A stretch of 64,000 nt of DNA from Escherichia coli. GTDB lineage: Bacteria; Pseudomonadota; Gammaproteobacteria; Enterobacterales; Enterobacteriaceae. The position numbers were made by a program, and so were the translations under genes. Shown in pieces: positions 97 to 18,560 of the stretch. The notes beneath the pieces were generated by a model that was given only the letters and a program-made list of their open reading frames with translations, did no database searches and was not told where the DNA came from. Each line of letters opens with the position of its first letter. Positions within the stretch are counted from its first letter, which is position 1. The stretch lies in assembly GCF_003334385.1 (NCBI RefSeq), contig NZ_QOWN01000015.1; one strand, 5' to 3'.

Positions 97-2379
97 TCAG
101 AAATGCATATTGGCTGTGAGCAAGAAGGTTCTTGGCTCGCCCGGGTGATAACGGTAGCCGCTCTTGTTGATTGAGGCGACGTAATCGGTATCAAACAGGT
201 TGTAAACGTTTAGCTGGAAGTCGAGATTGCGATTAACTCGATACCCCAGTTTGGCATCGGCGACCCAGTAACCTTCGGTAAACGCTGGCGTTCCCACCGC
301 GCCGTCTGAACCTTTATGCATACTGCCGATATAGCGTGCGCCCGCGCCAACAGAGATATCGTCGGTTGCCTGATATTGGCTCCATAAGGTGAAGGCGTGC
401 TCCGGGGTATACGGCAGCGATGAGGAACCATCCTGGGCAACATCTTTGCCGTTTTTGATGGTTGCTTTTTGCTGGGTATAGCCGCCAATCACCTGCCACG
501 CGGGAGTGATATTCCCGGCCACGGATATCTCATAGCCTTCGACGCGTTTCTTACCGTATTGCGAGTAAGTTCCGTCATCATTTTGCTCAACTTCATTTTC
601 GATATCAGTGCGGAACAGCGCGGCGGTGAGCAACAGACGTTTATCCAGAACCTGCCATTTGGTGCCAATCTCGCTGGTGTTGGCTTTTTGCGGTTTAAAA
701 TCGGTGCGGTTGGCACTGTTACCGCTGCCAGACTGCGCAAGGGCGAAGTTGTTGCCGCCCGGAGGCTGCTGGGAAACGGCATAGTTAATATAGACATTGC
801 CGTTTTCCGTCAGGTGATACAGCGCCCCGGCTTTCCAGTTCATCAGATTGCCCGACTTGGCGGTGTCGACGGTGGTGACCGGAGAACCTTTTGCCACACC
901 AGTTGGGCAGGTGATGGCACCGCGTCCGCTGCCGCCGCAGGCGGTGGCACTGTCATATTCAGTATGATAATTATCCAGACGGATCCCGCCGTTCAGCTCA
1001 AAATCACGGGTGATTTGCAGCGTATCAAAGGCGTAAATTGCGAAGGTATCCGTCTGACCATTGGCGTTTGCGCCGTTGCGCGTCAGGCCGCCGGGATGAA
1101 TGCTGCTGTCAGGATGATAAATATTTACCGCGGGTAACGTCACCGGATTAACGCCGTAGTTAGTCTGCGTTTCACGGGTAAATTCCACGCCGGTACTGAC
1201 ATCATGACCGATAGAACCGGTATAGAACGTCGAGGTCAGGTTGGTCTGGTTGGTGAGAATTTTATTACTCACATCTTTGGTATTCGCCGTGCGTGACCAG
1301 GTCCAGCTATTCACATCGCTGGTGGGCTGAGTAATATTCGACGCCCCGCCCATAATCGCCGTCATCAGGTAATCCTGCTTTACGCGCGACCAACGGGTAG
1401 TATTGCGAATGGTGGTGTTATCGTTGATGTCGTGCTCAAAACGCATGGTGGCGGTGTCGGTGGTCGAATCGTCGTAATCGGAATCCGTGCCGTAAAAGTT
1501 ATGAGTATCAACTTTTCCGGAATGATTCAGGGCCGCCGTTCCCGCAGATGGGGCAGAATAGCCCGGCAAACCGATGGTCGGAATGCCGCCGTCTGGCGTG
1601 TTGTGCTGGGTGACATGCAGATAATTAAGATACAAACGATTCGCTGTACCAAGGCCAAAAGCGACAGAAGGGGCGACGCCGTAACGCTCATTTTTGACTT
1701 TGTCGCGTCCGGCATCGTGCGTTTTTTCGCCCATTACATTCAGGCGCACCGCGGTGGTATCACCAATGACCTGATTGACGTCCAGCGTGCCGCGGCGGAA
1801 CCAGGCGCTGCCAATACTGGCGGAGGCGTCAATGCCGGAATCATTGCGCGGCTGCTTGCTGATCATATTGATCGAGCCTGTCGGTGCGCTGCGCCCGTAG
1901 TCGGTGCCGGACGGCCCTTTAATCACTTCGACCTGCTCGGTATTGAAGGTGTCGCGCGAGACGCTGCCGATATCGCGAATGCCATCAATATAAATACTGT
2001 TAGAGGTATCGGCACCACGCATATAAATGGCGTCGCCAGTGGTGGAGTTACCGTTCTCACCCGCAAAAAACGCACCCACGCCGGGGACGTTTTTGAGCGC
2101 GTCGGTAAGGTTGGTTGCGCCCTGATCTTTAATCACTTGTTCAGAAATTACCGTCATCGTGCGGGTAGTATCCGCTACCGGACGCGAGAATTTCGGATCG
2201 GCAGATTGTTGTGGCGCATAAAGCGAAGGCGTTGATGCTTCGACAACCAGCGTGTCATCCGCGTTAGTTTGCCCTTCGGCGGCGAGTGCCTGAGCCACAG
2301 GCGTGATGCCAATACAAAGACCGGCAAAGAACGTGAGCGAATGAAATTGTCTGGCAGGGAAATTGCGATTGTTTTCCAT
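97..2379 (-). CDS. fiu: TonB-dependent outer-membrane catecholate siderophore receptor Fiu
   Basis: 760-aa ORF with signal peptide, TonB-box/plug region and C-terminal aromatic residue typical of TonB-dependent receptors; candidate Fur box upstream; recognised as E. coli Fiu. Confidence 0.93.
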   Translation of the reverse strand: MENNRNFPARQFHSLTFFAGLCIGITPVAQALAAEGQTNADDTLVVEASTPSLYAPQQSADPKFSRPVADTTRTMTVISEQVIKDQGATNLTDALKNVPGVGAFFAGENGNSTTGDAIYMRGADTSNSIYIDGIRDIGSVSRDTFNTEQVEVIKGPSGTDYGRSAPTGSINMISKQPRNDSGIDASASIGSAWFRRGTLDVNQVIGDTTAVRLNVMGEKTHDAGRDKVKNERYGVAPSVAFGLGTANRLYLNYLHVTQHNTPDGGIPTIGLPGYSAPSAGTAALNHSGKVDTHNFYGTDSDYDDSTTDTATMRFEHDINDNTTIRNTTRWSRVKQDYLMTAIMGGASNITQPTSDVNSWTWSRTANTKDVSNKILTNQTNLTSTFYTGSIGHDVSTGVEFTRETQTNYGVNPVTLPAVNIYHPDSSIHPGGLTRNGANANGQTDTFAIYAFDTLQITRDFELNGGIRLDNYHTEYDSATACGGSGRGAITCPTGVAKGSPVTTVDTAKSGNLMNWKAGALYHLTENGNVYINYAVSQQPPGGNNFALAQSGSGNSANRTDFKPQKANTSEIGTKWQVLDKRLLLTAALFRTDIENEVEQNDDGTYSQYGKKRVEGYEISVAGNITPAWQVIGGYTQQKATIKNGKDVAQDGSSSLPYTPEHAFTLWSQYQATDDISVGAGARYIGSMHKGSDGAVGTPAFTEGYWVADAKLGYRVNRNLDFQLNVYNLFDTDYVASINKSGYRYHPGEPRTFLLTANMHF

Positions 2380-2483
2380 TTTGCAGGTGACTTTTTCTTA
2401 TATGTTGAAATTTTCACTGCCACGAGAAAGCCTCTCTGCGGATGCGATGCCACTGTTAATCCCGTGATAGTGCTCGTGAAAGT

Positions 2484-6328: not shown

Positions 6329-6477
6329 GACTCCTCCAGTGAGAAAATAGAGCAAAAGATAAGTATAGATGCTGGAGGAGGGGCGATTTTAAATGAGAGG
6401 AATCTGGTGTGCCTCCCTTTCGGGTGAAAGGGAGGAAGGGATATTAAGCAGGTTGCTGACAACGTGCGGGCTTTTTT

Positions 6478-9254: not shown

Positions 9255-9902
<648 letters not shown>

Positions 9903-10944: not shown

Positions 10945-11296
10945 CCTTTCTCCCACAAATATCTAGACTTAAGTAAAGCGTGGAGTGTACTGGATATACC
11001 CAATGCTGGTTGAGCATTTGTTGAAAAAATTTTCCCCCGTTTTGACTAAAATGCGCCAGGATTGATGGAATCATTAGTCTGGTGATTAGGAATAATCTGG
11101 ATGAATGACAGGGAAAACATGCGTAATACTTACGCAGTTCTCTGAAAAAGTGATTTAAATTTAGATGGATAGCGGTGTATGGAAACGTTCTGTTACATGA
11201 AATGGCCCGTTAGACATCACAAATCGCGAAGAGTTTCCCATTAATTTTTGATATATTTAAAACTTAGGACTTATTTGAATCACATTTGAGGTGGTT

Positions 11297-11825: not shown

Positions 11826-11866
11826 ATAAAAAATCCGCCTCTCGGGGCGGATTTTTGTTTTTAAGG
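11826..11866. terminator. Bidirectional rho-independent terminator between ompX and opgE
   Basis: AAAAAATCCGCCTCTCGGGGCGGATTTTTGTTTTT: GC stem with A-run upstream and T-run downstream; T-run overlaps opgE stop codon. Confidence 0.75.
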
Positions 11867-13444
11867 TTTCGGGTCGAAAATATCGGTTCCGAGATGGTTG
11901 TAATCCACCTTCTGTAACTGGAAGTTGGTGATGTATATCGGCCCGGCTTTCTTCTCAGATATAAACGGGTATTTGATGTTAATTTCCTTCGCTTTAATCC
12001 CCGTCCACTGGGAGAAAAAGCCTAAGAAGTCATTGGCTGAGCGGCGGGCTTTAATCACACGATGCGCTTTATCGTCGCTGGAAATGACCATAAAAGGCAC
12101 CTGGAAATTTTGCTGATATTTATCATCATGGGCAAGGTATTGCACGTCTTTACCGCGCTCTTTAAAGGCCAGACCGTGGTCAGAAAAGTAAACCAGCGAG
12201 AAGCTGCTGCCGCTGTTGCGTAACTGATCGTACAGCTTGCGCAGTAAATCGTCCGTTTGCGTCATGGTATAGAGATAGCACGACGTTTCTTTCGATTGCA
12301 CAAAGGTTTCGTATTTTCCTTGTGTCCTGTCGCAGGCCTGCGGATGTGAGCCCATCAGATGTAGAACAATCAGCTGCGGTTGCGAGTGCTCTTGCGCCAG
12401 CACTTGAGCGGTCATATCCAGTAACGCTTCGTCTTTGGTGTTTTTATCTGCTTCAAAATTACCTTCTTTCAGGAAGTACACTTCATCTGCTCGTTTGGCG
12501 ATGCTGGCGATAGCGGTATCGTATTCGCCGATTTGACCCTGGTTGGAAAACCACCAGGTCTGGAAGCCCGCGCGATTTGCCAGGGTGACAAAGTTATCCT
12601 GAAACTGTGGTTTGCCATCGACAACGCGATTGAGCGTTAAGCCAAGCGATTTCTGCGTGGAGCCACTGGCGGCAATGTAGTCAGCAAATATCAAACCGTT
12701 AACGCTGCTGGCAAACGGGGTATTGTCCCAGTGACCGCCAAAGGCACCGAGGGCATCGCGACGCGCGCTTTCACCGATCACCACCACATAGGTCTGATAC
12801 TTCGGCTTAACGGCAGTGACCGTCCAGGTATCTTTCATTCCGGAAAGTTTTGCCATCCGTTCTTGCTCTTCAATCACCTCGTTATTATTGACGATGACAT
12901 CCTTAGCAAAACGAAATACCGGATAGCCAGTATCTTTCAGTTTAAATACGCCACCCCAGGCCAGGTTTTGCACGGGAGCAACAAAAAATGTCGCCACACT
13001 GAATACCAGACACAGGCTGTCGAAGGTATTCCAGCGCGCTTTTTCATTCTCTTTTTTTCGCCTGATTGCTATTACGCCGAGCGCAAAAATAAATAAGCCG
13101 ACCAGGTAGCTGTACCACGGAAAAATCGTCAGGATTTCGGTCGACTCTTCCATATTGGTGGAGTGCAATGCCAGCAATGTATTGAAATTAGGCGCGCCGT
13201 AGGCCTGAGCAAAAGGGAAATAACAAGCCGCCACCAGCGAACTGACACCGACCAGAACTTTTTGTACGCGAGGCAATGTTCGCCATAGCAAAAGCAAAAT
13301 AGCCGTAAACGCAGCGGTGTAGAGCAAACTGAAGGGGTAACCTAAGCCGAGGTTAATTAATAGCGACTGTAAAAAGTAGAACGCAGTCCACGGGCTAAAT
13401 ACCCGGCTACGGGTAACAAGCGATTCTTTGAGGGTTAAATTCAT
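11861..13444 (-). CDS. opgE: Phosphoethanolamine transferase for osmoregulated periplasmic glucans OpgE (YbiP)
   Basis: 527-aa ORF with N-terminal TM domain and sulfatase/alkaline-phosphatase-like C-terminal domain. Confidence 0.88.
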   Translation of the reverse strand: MNLTLKESLVTRSRVFSPWTAFYFLQSLLINLGLGYPFSLLYTAAFTAILLLLWRTLPRVQKVLVGVSSLVAACYFPFAQAYGAPNFNTLLALHSTNMEESTEILTIFPWYSYLVGLFIFALGVIAIRRKKENEKARWNTFDSLCLVFSVATFFVAPVQNLAWGGVFKLKDTGYPVFRFAKDVIVNNNEVIEEQERMAKLSGMKDTWTVTAVKPKYQTYVVVIGESARRDALGAFGGHWDNTPFASSVNGLIFADYIAASGSTQKSLGLTLNRVVDGKPQFQDNFVTLANRAGFQTWWFSNQGQIGEYDTAIASIAKRADEVYFLKEGNFEADKNTKDEALLDMTAQVLAQEHSQPQLIVLHLMGSHPQACDRTQGKYETFVQSKETSCYLYTMTQTDDLLRKLYDQLRNSGSSFSLVYFSDHGLAFKERGKDVQYLAHDDKYQQNFQVPFMVISSDDKAHRVIKARRSANDFLGFFSQWTGIKAKEINIKYPFISEKKAGPIYITNFQLQKVDYNHLGTDIFDPKP

Positions 13445-13715
13445 ATGCCACTATCGTAACAAACGCCATGTGCTTACCCTGGCGTCAAGGGTCAATACCT
13501 GCAAGAGTGCGTGAAGAGTGGAAAGGGGTCCGCATCCGCGAGCCGCAATATACGCAGGGCTGCAAGAAGATAGAGCGAGCCGCCGTTCAGGTCAACTACT
13601 GACGAACAAATCTTTTGCGAAGGGGATTGCAAATCCGACAAAAAGTGGGGTTTTTCAGACCAAAACGCGTTATGCCTGCATGAAAGCAGGAGTGAAGCGG
13701 CGTACCGCGACGCCG

Positions 13716-13844
13716 CTATTTATCGGAAGGTTTATCTTGCTGCGGTTTGTTGTTGACCATATCGCACAACATAGAGAGCAGCATTAACCGTACTTTAAAG
13801 GGAGAATGACTAAACACGCGCATACACCTCTTGAACTCATTCAT
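13716..13844 (-). CDS. mntS: Small protein MntS (42 aa; lies within the RybA transcript)
   Basis: Not in ORF track (below size cutoff). Minus-strand translation from ATG at 13844 gives MNEFKRCMRVFSHSPFKVRLMLLSMLCDMVNNKPQQDKPSDK*, which I recognise as MntS. Confidence 0.85.
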   Translation of the reverse strand: MNEFKRCMRVFSHSPFKVRLMLLSMLCDMVNNKPQQDKPSDK

Positions 13845-13902
13845 AAGACCTCCTGACTTGCTAATCCCGTCGATCCTTGAGGGATGATTGCATTACATAC
13901 AG

Positions 13903-13920
13903 ATATAGCACAGGCTATAT
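13903..13920. promoter_or_regulatory. Candidate MntR operator upstream of mntS (ATATAGCACAGGCTATAT)
   Basis: Perfect inverted repeat ATAGC-N4-GCTAT, the core of the MntR box; a second partial copy TATATAGCTATTGCTAA follows at about 13921..13937. Confidence 0.55.
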
Positions 13921-14029
13921 TATATAGCTATTGCTAAAACGTTAATTTTTTGTACCTTCGCAACTCTGGTTTACAATGTGCGCACGAAATGAGAACGCTA
14001 TGTATGCGTCACCATAATGAGGAAGCACA

Positions 14030-14497
14030 ATGAGTCGTCGCGCAGGTACGCCAACAGCAAAAAAAGTGACGCAGTTAGTGAACGTGGAAGAGCACGTTGA
14101 AGGGTTCCGCCAGGTCAGAGAGGCGCATCGGCGCGAGCTTATTGATGATTACGTTGAGCTGATTTCTGACTTGATCAGGGAAGTGGGGGAAGCTCGTCAG
14201 GTGGACATGGCTGCTCGTCTGGGAGTTTCGCAACCGACGGTGGCTAAAATGCTTAAGCGGCTGGCAACCATGGGGCTGATTGAAATGATCCCCTGGCGTG
14301 GCGTGTTTTTAACGGCAGAAGGAGAGAAGCTGGCGCAGGAAAGCCGCGAGCGACATCAGATAGTCGAAAATTTCTTGTTGGTGTTGGGCGTCAGTCCGGA
14401 AATCGCCCGTCGCGACGCGGAAGGCATGGAGCACCATGTTAGTGAAGAGACGCTCGACGCTTTTCGTTTGTTTACCCAGAAACACGGTGCCAAATGA
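14030..14497 (+). CDS. mntR: Manganese-responsive transcriptional regulator MntR (DtxR family)
   Basis: 155-aa ORF with HTH and DtxR-like metal-binding region. Confidence 0.95.
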
Positions 14498-15612
14498 GCC
14501 TGCCTTTTTTACGCACGCTGCAAGGCGATCGTTTTTTTCAGTTATTAATTCTTGTTGGTATCGGATTAAGCTTTTTCGTGCCCTTTGCACCGAAATCCTG
14601 GCCTGCTGCTATCGACTGGCACACCATCATCACCTTAAGCGGCCTGATGCTGCTGACCAAAGGTGTGGAGTTAAGCGGTTATTTTGATGTGCTGGGGCGC
14701 AAAATGGTGCGCCGCTTTGCTACGGAGCGTCGGCTGGCGATGTTTATGGTGCTGGCGGCGGCGCTGCTTTCTACCTTTCTGACCAACGATGTCGCGCTGT
14801 TTATTGTTGTTCCGCTGACTATCACGCTAAAAAGACTGTGTGAGATCCCGGTTAATCGGCTGATTATTTTTGAGGCGCTGGCAGTCAACGCTGGTTCGCT
14901 ACTGACGCCAATTGGCAACCCGCAAAATATTCTTATCTGGGGACGTTCTGGTCTTTCGTTTGCCGGATTTATTGCCCAAATGGCACCGCTGGCTGGCGCA
15001 ATGATGCTGACGCTCCTGCTCCTGTGCTGGTGTTGTTTCCCTGGAAAGGCGATGCAATACCATACGGGGGTGCAAACACCGGAGTGGAAACCGCGGCTGG
15101 TGTGGAGTTGTCTGGGGCTGTATATCGTCTTTCTGACGGCGCTGGAGTTCAAACAAGAGCTGTGGGGACTGGTGATTGTGGCGGCAGGCTTTGCGCTGCT
15201 GGCACGTCGCGTGGTGCTCAGTGTGGACTGGACGCTGCTGCTGGTGTTTATGGCGATGTTTATCGACGTCCATTTACTGACCCAGCTTCCAGCGTTGCAA
15301 GGCGTGTTGGGTAACGTGAGTCATCTATCTGAACCCGGGTTATGGTTAACGGCAATCGGTTTATCGCAGGTGATCAGTAACGTGCCGAGTACCATATTGT
15401 TGCTGAACTATGTGCCGCCGTCTTTATTACTGGTATGGGCGGTAAACGTAGGTGGCTTTGGGTTATTACCCGGATCGCTGGCAAATTTGATTGCGCTACG
15501 TATGGCGAACGATCGCCGCATCTGGTGGCGTTTCCATCTCTATTCAATACCGATGCTGTTGTGGGCGGCGTTGGTGGGATATGTTTTGTTAGTTATACTC
15601 CCGGCCAACTAG
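14494..15612 (+). CDS. ybiR: Putative ion transporter YbiR (ArsB/NhaD permease superfamily)
   Basis: 372-aa polytopic membrane protein; start ATG overlaps mntR stop (ATGA). Confidence 0.88.
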
Positions 15613-15622
15613 GGTCTGGCAA

Positions 15623-15656
15623 ATAAAAAAGGCGGATTATGAGTCCGCCTTTTGCT
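15623..15656. terminator. Bidirectional rho-independent terminator between ybiR and ldtB
   Basis: AAATAAAAAAGGCGGATTATGAGTCCGCCTTTTGCTTT: stem AGGCGGA/TCCGCCT with flanking A-run and T-run. Confidence 0.75.
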
Positions 15657-15670
15657 TTAAGTTTTGAAGA

Positions 15671-16591
15671 TTAATTCAGACGAACCGGCATCCCGGAGCG
15701 GTTTTTAATCGCTTCATCAAGAACAACCTGGTCAACATCTGGCTGACCGGTCACTGTCTGCACGCTCTTCGTCAGGGTAATTGGCACAATTTCCTGACCT
15801 TCAAACTGGGCTTCGGTGGTAGACAGCGGGTTATGGACTTCAATATAACGGCTGCCGTCTGGCTCGGTGGTCGCTTTTACCGGCTCATCAATAAACTGTA
15901 CGCGGGTACCGACCGGTACTTTCTCGAACAGGAATTTGATGTCTTCGTTACGCAGACGCACACAACCATGACTTACACGCAGGCCGATACCGAAGTTGGC
16001 GTTGGTGCCATGGATAGCATACAGGCGACCGATATAGAGTGCATACAGCCCCATCGGGTTATCCGGACCTGCCGGAACGACAGCCGGAAGCGGTTCGCCC
16101 GCAGCGCGGTACTCTGCGTGCATTTTGGCGGTCGGCGTCCAGGTCGGGCCTGCTTTTTTACGCTCAACTTTGGTGGTCCAGTTGATAGGCGTATCTTTGC
16201 CTAACTGACCAATGCCGATCGGCAGCACGATAACGGTGTTGGTCCCTTTCGGATAGTAATAAAGACGCATCTCAGCACTGTTAATGACGATGCCTTCATG
16301 AACGGTATCCGGCAGGATCAGCTGCTGCGGAATGTTCAGTACAGTACCGCCTTTCGGCAGGAAGGTATCCACACCCGGGTTCGCTTCCATCATATTGGAA
16401 AGCCCCATCTGGTACTCGGCGGCAAAATACTCCAGCGGCTGAGTGTTACCTTCAGGAATGGTGATCACCTGATTCTGACCAACCAGGCGACTCCCGTCGG
16501 TTGGCAGAGGATAAGTTACCGCAGAGGCGGTACTGCAAAAGCCGACAACAGCGAAGGCCGCTGCGAATAATGTTTTCAATTTCATATTCAT
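15671..16591 (-). CDS. ldtB: L,D-transpeptidase LdtB (YbiS), links Braun lipoprotein to peptidoglycan
   Basis: 306-aa ORF with signal peptide and YkuD domain containing catalytic HGC motif (SHGCVR). Confidence 0.9.
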
Positions 16592-18462: not shown

Positions 18463-18560
18463 GCCTGATGCGCTACGCTTATCAGGCCTACGCAGTACCT
18501 GCAATATATTGAATCTGCAGGACTTTGTAGGCCGGATAAGGCGTTAACGCCGCATCAGGC
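18463..18560. repeat. REP/BIME cluster (two inverted REP units) downstream of ybiT
   Basis: GCCTGATGCGCTACGCTTATCAGGCCTAC and TGTAGGCCGGATAAGGCGTTAACGCCGCATCAGGC. Confidence 0.8.

Follow-up and report, generated by a model that had tools for sequence, protein, structure and literature searches.

The small-protein gene mntS and its candidate tandem MntR operator in Escherichia coli

MntS stands beside the small proteins MgtS, AcrZ, KdpF, and SgrT, all of which are shorter than 50 aa, induced by stress, and bind a larger membrane transporter. It shares these features without any sequence relationship, and it is set apart by its target MntP, which it inhibits, and by its signal, low manganese acting via MntR. 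Previous work demonstrated that the manganese exporter MntP is bound and inhibited by MntS, so that manganese is retained in the cell; MntP is required for the MntS phenotype, and binding of the two proteins was found in two-hybrid and co-purification assays (bioRxiv 10.1101/2023.06.02.543501). It has also been proposed in the literature that manganese-dependent self-association of MntS may free MntP once manganese returns. Manganese-loaded MntR is stated to be the repressor of mntS (PMC4361602), and reporter experiments showed that repression of PmntS depends on MntR and Mn, the Mn response being lost without mntR and regained on complementation (PMC9806134). At mntP, MntR activates instead of repressing (PMC9806134).

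We analysed a stretch of E. coli DNA of 64,000 nucleotides (the window), and found that the locus at 13716..13844 on the minus strand is almost certainly E. coli mntS with its MntR operator. The genes concerned are the following.

Up to 13444, same strand as mntS: opgE (ybiP), downstream of mntS, from annotation.
13716..13844, minus strand: mntS coding sequence, 42 aa, ATG to TAG, with the translation MNEFKRCMRVFSHSPFKVRLMLLSMLCDMVNNKPQQDKPSDK followed by the stop.
13849..13854, minus strand: Shine-Dalgarno sequence AGGAGG, 4 nt 5' of the ATG, read from the sequence.
14030..14497, plus strand: mntR, 155 aa, encoding the manganese-responsive regulator that would act on the boxes, from the ORF list and annotated as b0817.

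The window and MG1655 are near-identical. Identity at the mntS locus is 100%, the DNA is the same throughout window positions 12001..16000, and the protein is the same as MntS of K-12 (b4705). The neighbour order is also shared with K-12 (opgE, mntS, then divergent mntR-ybiR), both proteins fall under the family model NF033226, and we found no difference at the locus. Elsewhere, 14 SNPs lie past position 6400 and a 1-nt indel lies near 6350; the indel shifts positions before about 6350, and the two genomes are collinear at mntS. The product matched the NCBIfam MntS equivalog NF033226 with 96 bits (cutoff 36; E = 6.3e-28; residues 1-39). A Pfam scan of MntS gave no match, which we attribute to a library version older than PF26599, the entry that database homologs of MntS bear. 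Of 5426 complete E. coli genomes, 5422 annotate the gene as mntS, and in MG1655 it is b4705 within the ncRNA rybA b4416. The preliminary description of this DNA had called the locus a known one, with MntS inside the RybA transcript, and both the annotation and the family match agree with it.

A 42-codon minus-strand ORF had been read at this position, and its translation was confirmed exactly. The length of such an ORF is unremarkable by itself, since the listing for 4.5 kb comprises 72 ORFs of 20 aa or longer. In 77 of 80 Enterobacteriaceae species, mntS lies immediately upstream of mntR and divergent from it, and two of the three exceptions have no upstream sequence. Among 78 sequences, the start codon is always ATG, the length is 41-44 aa, and the spacer between mntS and mntR measures 180-191 nt in 76. 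An alignment of 37 diverse MntS sequences contained 16 invariant residues, with an N-terminal core MNE..RC..VF.HSPF.VRL.L followed by a variable polar tail. Pairwise differences per site at codon positions 1, 2, and 3 were 0.17, 0.08, and 0.32, giving the order 3 > 1 > 2. In the mntS frame, dN/dS was 0.14 over 75 distinct orthologous sequences and 0.11 over codons 1-29, while the five other frames gave 1.1 to 3.0 in four cases and 0.30 in the fifth. The Shine-Dalgarno sequence was invariant at five of its six positions and at least 90% conserved at the sixth (75 distinct enterobacterial sequences). These results show that mntS evolves as a protein-coding sequence under purifying selection. In the AlphaFold model (pLDDT 74), MntS forms helices at residues 2-13 and 16-31 with a break at Ser14-Pro15, an architecture that has likewise been described for the protein (bioRxiv 10.1101/2023.06.02.543501).

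Whether the frame gives a translation signal, the point on which the preliminary description had made the gene depend, is already answered by published targeted mass spectrometry (PMC12529367). Parallel reaction monitoring (PRM) detected the MntS peptide VFSHSPFKVR (residues 10-19) in the wild type and not in an mntS deletion; low Mn was the only condition in which the protein was present, with about 6000 copies in each cell, and it was absent at high Mn (PMC12529367).

The ancestor of MntS has been proposed to be the signal peptide of an MntR-linked, SitA-type manganese-binding protein (Wright et al. 2023/2024). The motif FSHSPF-(K/R)-(V/L)-RLML is common to MntS and SitA-type signal peptides, whereas MntS has neither the AXA cleavage motif nor the mature domain of SitA-type proteins. 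In a single-pass search, a profile of 37 MntS sequences matched one SitA/MntC-like fragment, P0151 (147 aa), with marginal significance (E = 8.8e-4), and recovered no full-length SitA. The MntS-like stretch of this fragment occupies residues 16-44, directly before the metal-binding domain; further downstream, the fragment resembles metal substrate-binding-protein models (E ~1e-18), and its N-terminus scored 30 bits against NF033226, under the cutoff of 36.

Upstream of mntS, we located the following elements of the operator and of the two promoters.

13572..13911, minus strand: RybA/mntS transcript, 340 nt with a 67-nt 5' UTR (RefSeq ncRNA rybA b4416, MG1655 852725..853064, offset 839153).
13903..13920, either strand: MntR box 1, ATATAGC-ACAG-GCTATAT (core 13905..13918), an inverted repeat of two perfect 7-nt arms around a 4-nt spacer.
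13922..13939, either strand: MntR box 2, ATATAGC-TATT-GCTAAAA (core 13924..13937), imperfect in E. coli with one mismatch to the motif.
13919..13924, minus strand: mntS -10 element TATAAT, bridging both boxes, 8 nt 5' of the annotated transcript start.
13950..13984, plus strand: mntR promoter, with -35 TTGTAC (13950..13955), a 16-nt spacer, -10 TACAAT (13972..13977), and a transcription start at A 13984, from conservation and Cappable-seq.

An MntR-type palindrome ATAGC-N4-GCTAT at 13903..13920 had been described earlier, and it held up on comparison, since the boxes of mntH, mntP, and dps share its core and all of the 78 enterobacterial sequences keep its half-sites ATAGC/GCTAT unchanged. We refine that description at the level of sequence: the mntS operator reads as a tandem pair of boxes rather than one palindrome. 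The two boxes abut, with a centre-to-centre distance of 19 bp. Box 2 takes the form (T/A)TAGC-N4-GCTAT in 75 of the 78 sequences, 13 of which carry a perfect ATAGC-N4-GCTAT, and its half-sites stay constant as the spacer changes (CATA, AATA, CGTA). The intergenic sequence flanking the boxes is far less conserved than the half-sites. Motif identity, position, and conservation make box 1, and especially box 2, candidate MntR sites.

Among the other MntR-associated promoters, the mntH box (AAACATAGCAAAGGCTATGTTT) shares with mntS the ATAGC-N4-GCTAT core and its A/T-rich flanks, and the dps box (ACATAGCCGGTGCTATAC), which overlaps a TATACT -10 element, has the same core. The mntP gene also has two boxes, but these stand 40 bp from each other, some 370 to 420 nt 5' of the start codon. 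Unlike the mntP boxes, where MntR activates, the mntS boxes abut and enclose the -10 element.

The mntS -10 element has the form TAnnAT in 69 of 78 sequences (TAAAAT, TATAAT, TACAAT, TAAGAT, TAGAAT). We found no convincing mntS -35 element; the best candidate, TTAACG at 13945..13940, leaves a short 15-nt spacer, and a promoter scan of the locus did not call the mntS promoter, whose -35 is weak. The start of the mntS transcript was taken from RefSeq, and the Cappable-seq entries used cover the plus strand only, with none at the position expected for the mntS start. The annotated RybA 5' end (13911) falls in the spacer of box 1. Because the -10 element lies between the boxes and the 5' end lies inside box 1, the box positions support repression by promoter occlusion, given the annotated start. 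At high manganese, MntR dimers loaded with Mn would sit on both boxes, from about -28 to +9 relative to the transcript start, and RNA polymerase would be kept off the -10 element and the start site. When manganese is scarce, the boxes would be empty, and mntS would be transcribed and translated.

The mntR promoter, to which the palindrome had been described as adjacent, indeed starts 30 nt from it and 10 nt past box 2, and neither box overlaps this promoter. Its hexamers are conserved as TTGT(A/G)C-16-TACAAT, with a spacer constant in length and variable in sequence. A Cappable-seq transcription start at U00096.2 852360, with a score of 129.5 (PMC4782308 supplement), corresponds to window position 13984; the coordinate shift of 777 for U00096.2 was checked on 21 other transcription starts. 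The SMRT-Cappable-seq supplements hold no entries for the genes of the mntS locus.

The operator region may also be read as a symmetric bidirectional promoter, whose plus-strand partner would drive mntR as well, so that both boxes would autoregulate mntR. The promoter scan called a plus-strand site made of ATTACA (13892..13897), an 18-nt spacer, and TATATT (13916..13921), with a predicted start near 13928. The region is symmetric about 13921, ATTACA lies inside an invariant block at 13891..13902, and the predicted divergent starts are about 18 bp apart, a geometry described for bidirectional bacterial promoters. However, Cappable-seq recorded no plus-strand start between window positions 13814 and 13984, although this survey would miss a promoter repressed under the growth condition used and so does not exclude one fully. 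The strong start at 13984 (129.5) is accounted for by the separate, conserved mntR promoter. We consider a bidirectional promoter unlikely.

The transcript itself entered annotation as a small RNA, and the label ncRNA rybA persists. It could be mainly a non-coding regulatory RNA in which the 42-codon ORF is incidental or secondary. Its 3' region contains one further element.

13697..13716, minus strand: terminator hairpin GCGGCGT-CGCGGT-ACGCCGC, read from the sequence and from conservation.

The first base of this hairpin is the last base of the mntS TAG stop. The hairpin is kept in 74 of 78 sequences, among which its stem shows one compensatory variant, T-A to A-T. Term-seq placed 3' ends at window positions 13692 (220 nt, primary) and 13663 (249 nt) (PMC7815308 supplement), and the primary end at 13692 is 5 nt past the hairpin stem. 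The tail that follows is a T-rich TTCATTTTT in most genera and TTCACTCC in Escherichia; the 9 nt past the stem contain 2-4 T in Escherichia, and 6-8 T in 55 of the 74 hairpin-bearing sequences. A terminator scan of the locus made no call because the E. coli tail is T-poor, and the hairpin was spotted by eye and by conservation. Loss of the T-rich tail in Escherichia could explain the long RybA isoforms in E. coli.

The existence of several RybA 3' isoforms suits a role of the RNA, as does the 12-nt block of the 5' UTR at 13891..13902, which is invariant without an established reason. Gerstle et al. 2012, as cited in PMC4361602, reported that under peroxide stress aroF and aroL are affected independently of Hfq. 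The same source, however, assigns the overproduction phenotypes to the MntS protein, independently of Hfq, and data cited there indicate that start-codon or frameshift mutants of mntS do not keep all mntS phenotypes (PMC4361602). The dN/dS of 0.14, the coding-type pattern of the codon positions, the nearly invariant Shine-Dalgarno sequence, and the peptide detected by mass spectrometry (PMC12529367) also speak against an incidental ORF. Rfam returned no RybA family, either for the locus at E <= 1 or for the whole window at the gathering threshold, and the sequence past the terminator hairpin, from 13690 to 13650, is poorly conserved. Since folding of the whole RybA was at the level of shuffled sequences (z = 0.00), we dropped the idea of a structured riboregulator; only the hairpin after the stop is conserved. 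A transcript that is mainly non-coding is thus very unlikely, and we regard it as the mRNA of MntS. A separate RNA-level role for RybA beside MntS is possible.

The palindrome might instead be a chance inverted repeat or a site for another regulator such as Fur. About four generic 7+7 palindromes with a 4-nt loop should turn up in 64 kb (64000/4^7), and a loosely Fur-box-like AATGCAATCAT lies in the 5' UTR just downstream of the palindrome. The specific motif is a different matter: exact ATAGC-N4-GCTAT occurs twice in the 64 kb against 0.05 expected, and none of 100 shuffles reached two. The second copy lies in the dps promoter (9808..9821). The dps gene is said, after work by Yamamoto et al. 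in 2011, to be regulated by MntR. As mntH and mntP bear the same core and the half-sites are found in all 78 sequences, chance has little room, and another regulator is difficult to reconcile with a PmntS Mn response that needs mntR (PMC9806134). Taken together, these alternatives are extremely unlikely, and an MntR operator is the preferred reading.

The ORF list shows a further frame over mntS, and the annotation shows one short gene elsewhere in the window.

13518..13787, plus strand: spurious 89-aa ORF with a GTG start, with a 72-nt antisense overlap with mntS and the rest over the RybA 3' region.
11179..11244, plus strand: YliM, 21 aa, from annotation.

That the 89-aa frame is the true gene, with the minus-strand ORF as its by-product, has a next to negligible probability and is, from sequence comparison, already refuted: although it is the only ORF of at least 60 aa between the end of opgE (13444) and the start of mntR (14030), it carries in-frame stops in most genera and in other species of Escherichia, has a dN/dS of 1.11 over the mntS overlap, finds no NCBIfam match, is annotated in 0 of 5422 E. 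coli genomes, and has conserved stretches that coincide with the mntS terminator hairpin and an opgE promoter-like site on the opposite strand. The earlier judgement that this ORF is antisense and spurious was therefore correct. The accompanying suggestion that other small proteins of the window go unnoticed stands in part, with YliM as one annotated case below 60 aa and no other annotated case in the window.

The gene, its regulator, the operator type, and the protein function have all been published already, and for this reason the locus carries small weight as a discovery. Two details may be absent from the literature consulted, namely the conserved tandem box pair enclosing the -10 element in Enterobacteriaceae and the Escherichia-specific loss of the terminator tail; a novel reading built on them has a low probability. 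The value of the locus is that of a calibration case, in which a 60-aa ORF filter hides a functional 42-codon gene and reports instead an antisense ORF of 89 aa that is spurious. The two were separated cleanly by synteny, by dN/dS, and by how well the Shine-Dalgarno sequence and operator are conserved, and these tests are usable on other intergenic short ORFs. If the loss of the T-rich tail does lengthen RybA in E. coli, read-through controlled by Mn and MntR could extend into the promoter region of opgE, which follows mntS on the same strand. Such read-through could endow the extended RNA with its own function, or couple opgE expression to manganese.

The interval between opgE and mntR was compared with MG1655 (NC_000913.3), to which the window runs parallel, the record coordinate being the window position plus 839153 from about 6354 on. 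Beyond 6400 the window differs from MG1655 by 14 SNPs, with a 1-nt indel near 6350, and 12001..16000 is identical. The preliminary description had reported a 42-codon minus-strand ORF, and this is present, running from ATG to TAG and translating to MNEFKRCMRVFSHSPFKVRLMLLSMLCDMVNNKPQQDKPSDK; it is mntS, inside the annotated rybA. The features concerned are as follows:

9255..9758, minus strand, dps, the gene beside a further MntR-type box
11861..13444, minus strand, opgE (MG1655 annotation)
13518..13787, plus strand, spurious 89-aa ORF with a GTG start (ORF listing)
13572..13911, minus strand, ncRNA rybA, b4416, 340 nt (MG1655 annotation)
13716..13844, minus strand, mntS, b4705 (MG1655 annotation)
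14030..14497, plus strand, mntR, followed by ybiR (MG1655 annotation)

The 585-nt interval was matched in 5422 of 5426 complete E. coli genomes, each at 95% identity or more, and mntS is the feature annotated beneath these matches. By itself a 42-codon ORF is uninformative: ORFs of 20 aa or longer that overlap the 4.5 kb surveyed number 72. Using MntR as probe, we fetched 80 species loci; an mntS ortholog diverges from mntR in 77, and for two of the remaining three no sequence upstream is available. Every ortholog has an ATG start and a length of 41-44 aa. Compared pairwise, codon positions 1, 2 and 3 differ by 0.17, 0.08 and 0.32 per site, and dN/dS (Nei-Gojobori) was 0.14 overall and 0.11 over codons 1-29. 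In four of the five other frames dN/dS was 1.1 to 3.0; the fifth gave 0.30, a low value that we ascribe to constraint inherited from mntS, with which it shares third codon positions. The protein has sixteen invariant residues (M1, N2, E3, R6, C7, V10, F11, H13, S14, P15, F16, V18, R19, L20, L22 and K33), the C-terminal tail is variable, and in the Shine-Dalgarno sequence AGGAGG (13854..13849) five of the six positions never vary and the other is conserved to at least 90%.

With the NCBIfam equivalog small_MntS, whose cutoff is 36 bits, the MntS protein scored 96 bits, and its database homologs are all annotated MntS, all from Enterobacteriaceae, and carry Pfam PF26599. A Pfam scan of MntS itself returned no family, apparently owing to library age, to which a negative Pfam scan can thus be due. 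The preliminary description had looked to a translation signal over mntS, and targeted mass spectrometry supplies one: the peptide VFSHSPFKVR (residues 10-19) was seen in wild type at low Mn, where MntS reaches about 6000 copies per cell, and was absent at high Mn and in an mntS deletion (PMC12529367).

From the end of opgE (13444) to the start of mntR (14030), no ORF reaches 60 aa except the antisense one at 13518..13787 (+), which had already been called spurious. This judgement is borne out: the ORF has no family match, is never annotated in the matching E. coli genomes, carries in-frame stops in other Escherichia species (L005-L008) and in most genera, and shows a dN/dS of 1.11 in its frame over the stretch overlapping mntS. 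Where it seems conserved, it coincides on the opposite strand with the mntS terminator hairpin and a promoter-like site of opgE.

We then considered the operator. The palindrome at 13903..13920 (box 1) reads ATATAGC-ACAG-GCTATAT, a perfect 7+7 inverted repeat with the core ATAGC-N4-GCTAT at 13905..13918. The earlier identification of this core is confirmed. In its exact form it is found twice in the 64 kb, where chance would give 0.05 occurrences, and none of 100 shuffles reached two. Footprinting by alignment of 76 intergenic regions (75 distinct) revealed a near-invariant block from about 13951 to 13891, reading AAAAAATTAACG-TTTTAGCAATAGCTATAT-A-ATATAGCCTGTGCTATAT-CTGTATGTAATG in the mntS sense. 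The box 1 half-sites are found in 78 of 78 sequences. Directly beside lies box 2 (13922..13939; core 13924..13937, one mismatch in E. coli), which in 75 of 78 sequences takes the form (T/A)TAGC-N4-GCTAT, 13 of them matching ATAGC-N4-GCTAT perfectly. Between half-sites that are kept, its spacer changes (CATA, AATA, CGTA); judged by alignment, this is the signature expected of a protein-binding site, making box 2 a putative operator.

The mntS -10 hexamer, a consensus TATAAT at 13924..13919 in E. coli and conforming to TAnnAT in 69 of 78 sequences, bridges both boxes, and the annotated RybA 5' end (13911) falls 8 nt downstream of it, within the box 1 spacer. With this layout, two Mn-loaded MntR dimers would occupy about -28 to +9, keeping RNA polymerase out. 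The box core is shared with the mntH promoter (site AAACATAGCAAAGGCTATGTTT), with mntP, which has two copies upstream, and with the dps promoter in the window. Repression of a PmntS reporter is MntR- and Mn-dependent (PMC9806134; see also PMC4361602).

Several further observations concern these elements. The second exact core, at 9808..9821, precedes the dps start codon by 50-63 nt and overlaps the TATACT -10-like hexamer of dps, a reported MntR target; a SNP relative to MG1655 (C in place of T, 9802) lies 6 nt outside this core. In the MG1655 mntH region (L085), the MntR box (2224..2237) falls within ypeD (b4819, 2188..2277), an annotated small ORF that overlaps the mntH start and is another small protein gene tied to an MntR-controlled promoter. 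In Citrobacter sp. R56 (L015, about 2385..2449), the 2.4 kb preceding mntR contain no mntS; similarity to the E. coli sequence starts within box 1, leaving the GCTATAT half alone with box 2 intact and unrelated AT-rich DNA beyond, which suggests an insertion or replacement with its breakpoint in the operator. The mntS-mntR spacer, usually about 185 nt, is 432 nt in Leclercia adecarboxylata NCTC13032 (L040, 2160..2407), with an insertion of about 246 nt near the box 2 position, and a short 162 nt in locus L039. In the mntS 5' UTR, the 12-nt block CTGTATGTAATG (13891..13902, +10 to +21) is almost invariant among 75 distinct enterobacterial sequences, and the ATTACA of a promoter-like site on the plus strand falls on it. 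The mntS 5' UTR is also reported to contact the pre-16S rRNA 3' extension (preprint 10.1101/2025.09.11.675593).

On the mntR side, TTGT(A/G)C (13950..13955, +) and TACAAT (13972..13977, +) are conserved, and the 16-nt spacer is fixed in length and variable in sequence. The portion of the Cappable-seq supplement used here (PMC4782308) holds a strong plus-strand TSS at U00096.2 852360 (score 129.5). The coordinate shift to version 3 is 777, verified on 21 other TSSs: a TAnnnT -10 appears for 14 of 21 only near this shift, and a purine start for 19 of 21 only at exactly 777. This puts the mntR TSS at window 13984, 7 nt past TACAAT, and TTGT(A/G)C-16-TACAAT is the mntR promoter. The palindrome had been placed next to this promoter, and indeed the mntR -35 begins 10 nt downstream of box 2. 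A promoter scan also gives a plus-strand site for a start near 13928, as a symmetric bidirectional promoter would have, but TSS support near 13928 is absent from the same portion of the Cappable-seq data; a promoter repressed under the conditions used would be missed there, and we regard this arrangement as quite improbable beside the mntR promoter with its start at 13984. The same data contain a weak antisense TSS within mntS at 13814 (+). By the published offset, Term-seq 3' ends fall at 14041 (+), 11 nt into the mntR ORF, and at 13820 (-), 24 nt into the mntS ORF, and may reflect premature termination or processing.

The mntS transcript ends at a hairpin, GCGGCGT-CGCGGT-ACGCCGC (13716..13697), that begins on the last base of the stop codon and is kept in 74 of 78 sequences, with one compensatory stem variant. 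Term-seq places the primary 3' end at 13692, 5 nt past the stem (220-nt transcript), and a further one at 13663 (249 nt; PMC7815308 supplement), in keeping with a published major RybA band of about 205 nt accompanied by a family of longer RNAs that share their 5' end (PMC4361602). The 9-nt tail after the hairpin contains 6-8 T in 55 of the 74 hairpin-bearing sequences, typically TTCATTTTT; the Escherichia tail (13685..13696) contains 2-4 T in all five sequences (TTCACTCC), as do a few from Citrobacter and Kluyvera. As the aligned tails read, this erosion may weaken the terminator and give rise to the long E. coli RybA isoforms, and may permit read-through toward opgE, downstream on the same strand.

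The 340-nt RybA folds no better than shuffles (z = 0.00), and no Rfam family was found for it, either at E<=1 for the locus or at the gathering threshold for the whole window, so a structured riboregulator has no sequence support. A separate RNA role for RybA has been reported by Gerstle et al. (2012) and may exist. The annotated RybA 3' end (13572) is the first base of the -10 in a conserved minus-strand promoter-like site, TTGACC-17-TATCTT (13567..13595), presumably the opgE promoter. Another conserved block, 13460..13490, is in what is probably the 5' UTR of opgE, and 38 nt into opgE (13407) there is a 3' end sensitive to bicyclomycin.

Overproduced MntS raises intracellular Mn, acting as a protein and independently of Hfq (PMC4361602). 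Its toxicity depends on MntP, which it binds in two-hybrid and co-purification assays, and its self-association with Mn present is a proposed off-switch (bioRxiv 10.1101/2023.06.02.543501). An AlphaFold model from 37 sequences (pLDDT 74) predicts two helices (2-13 and 16-31) interrupted at Ser14-Pro15, matching the bihelical protein kinked at Pro15 described in that preprint, where descent from the SitA signal peptide is also proposed. A single-pass profile search with MntS found one SitA/MntC-like N-terminal fragment (P0151, E = 8.8e-4), whose signal peptide resembles MntS, and did not recover full-length SitA; this match would lend marginal independent support to such an origin.

The preliminary description also expected small proteins to be missed elsewhere in the window. 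This holds in principle and falls short in extent, with one further case, yliM, the sole other CDS below 60 aa in the MG1655 annotation. It is listed here with the Rfam matches at gathering threshold:

11179..11244, plus strand, yliM, 21 aa, METFCYMKWPVRHHKSRRVSH, annotated just upstream of ompX
18484..18526, minus strand, ES036, about 42 bits
48823..48901, minus strand, RybB sRNA, 105 bits
60577..60619, plus strand, ES036, about 42 bits
61599..61679, plus strand, naRNA4, 75.5 bits

The mntS locus is already known in its gene, regulator, operator type and function, and the initial observation and its interpretation are correct. To this the present analysis adds a tandem pair of boxes around the -10, a terminator tail eroded specifically in Escherichia and a clean comparative demonstration.
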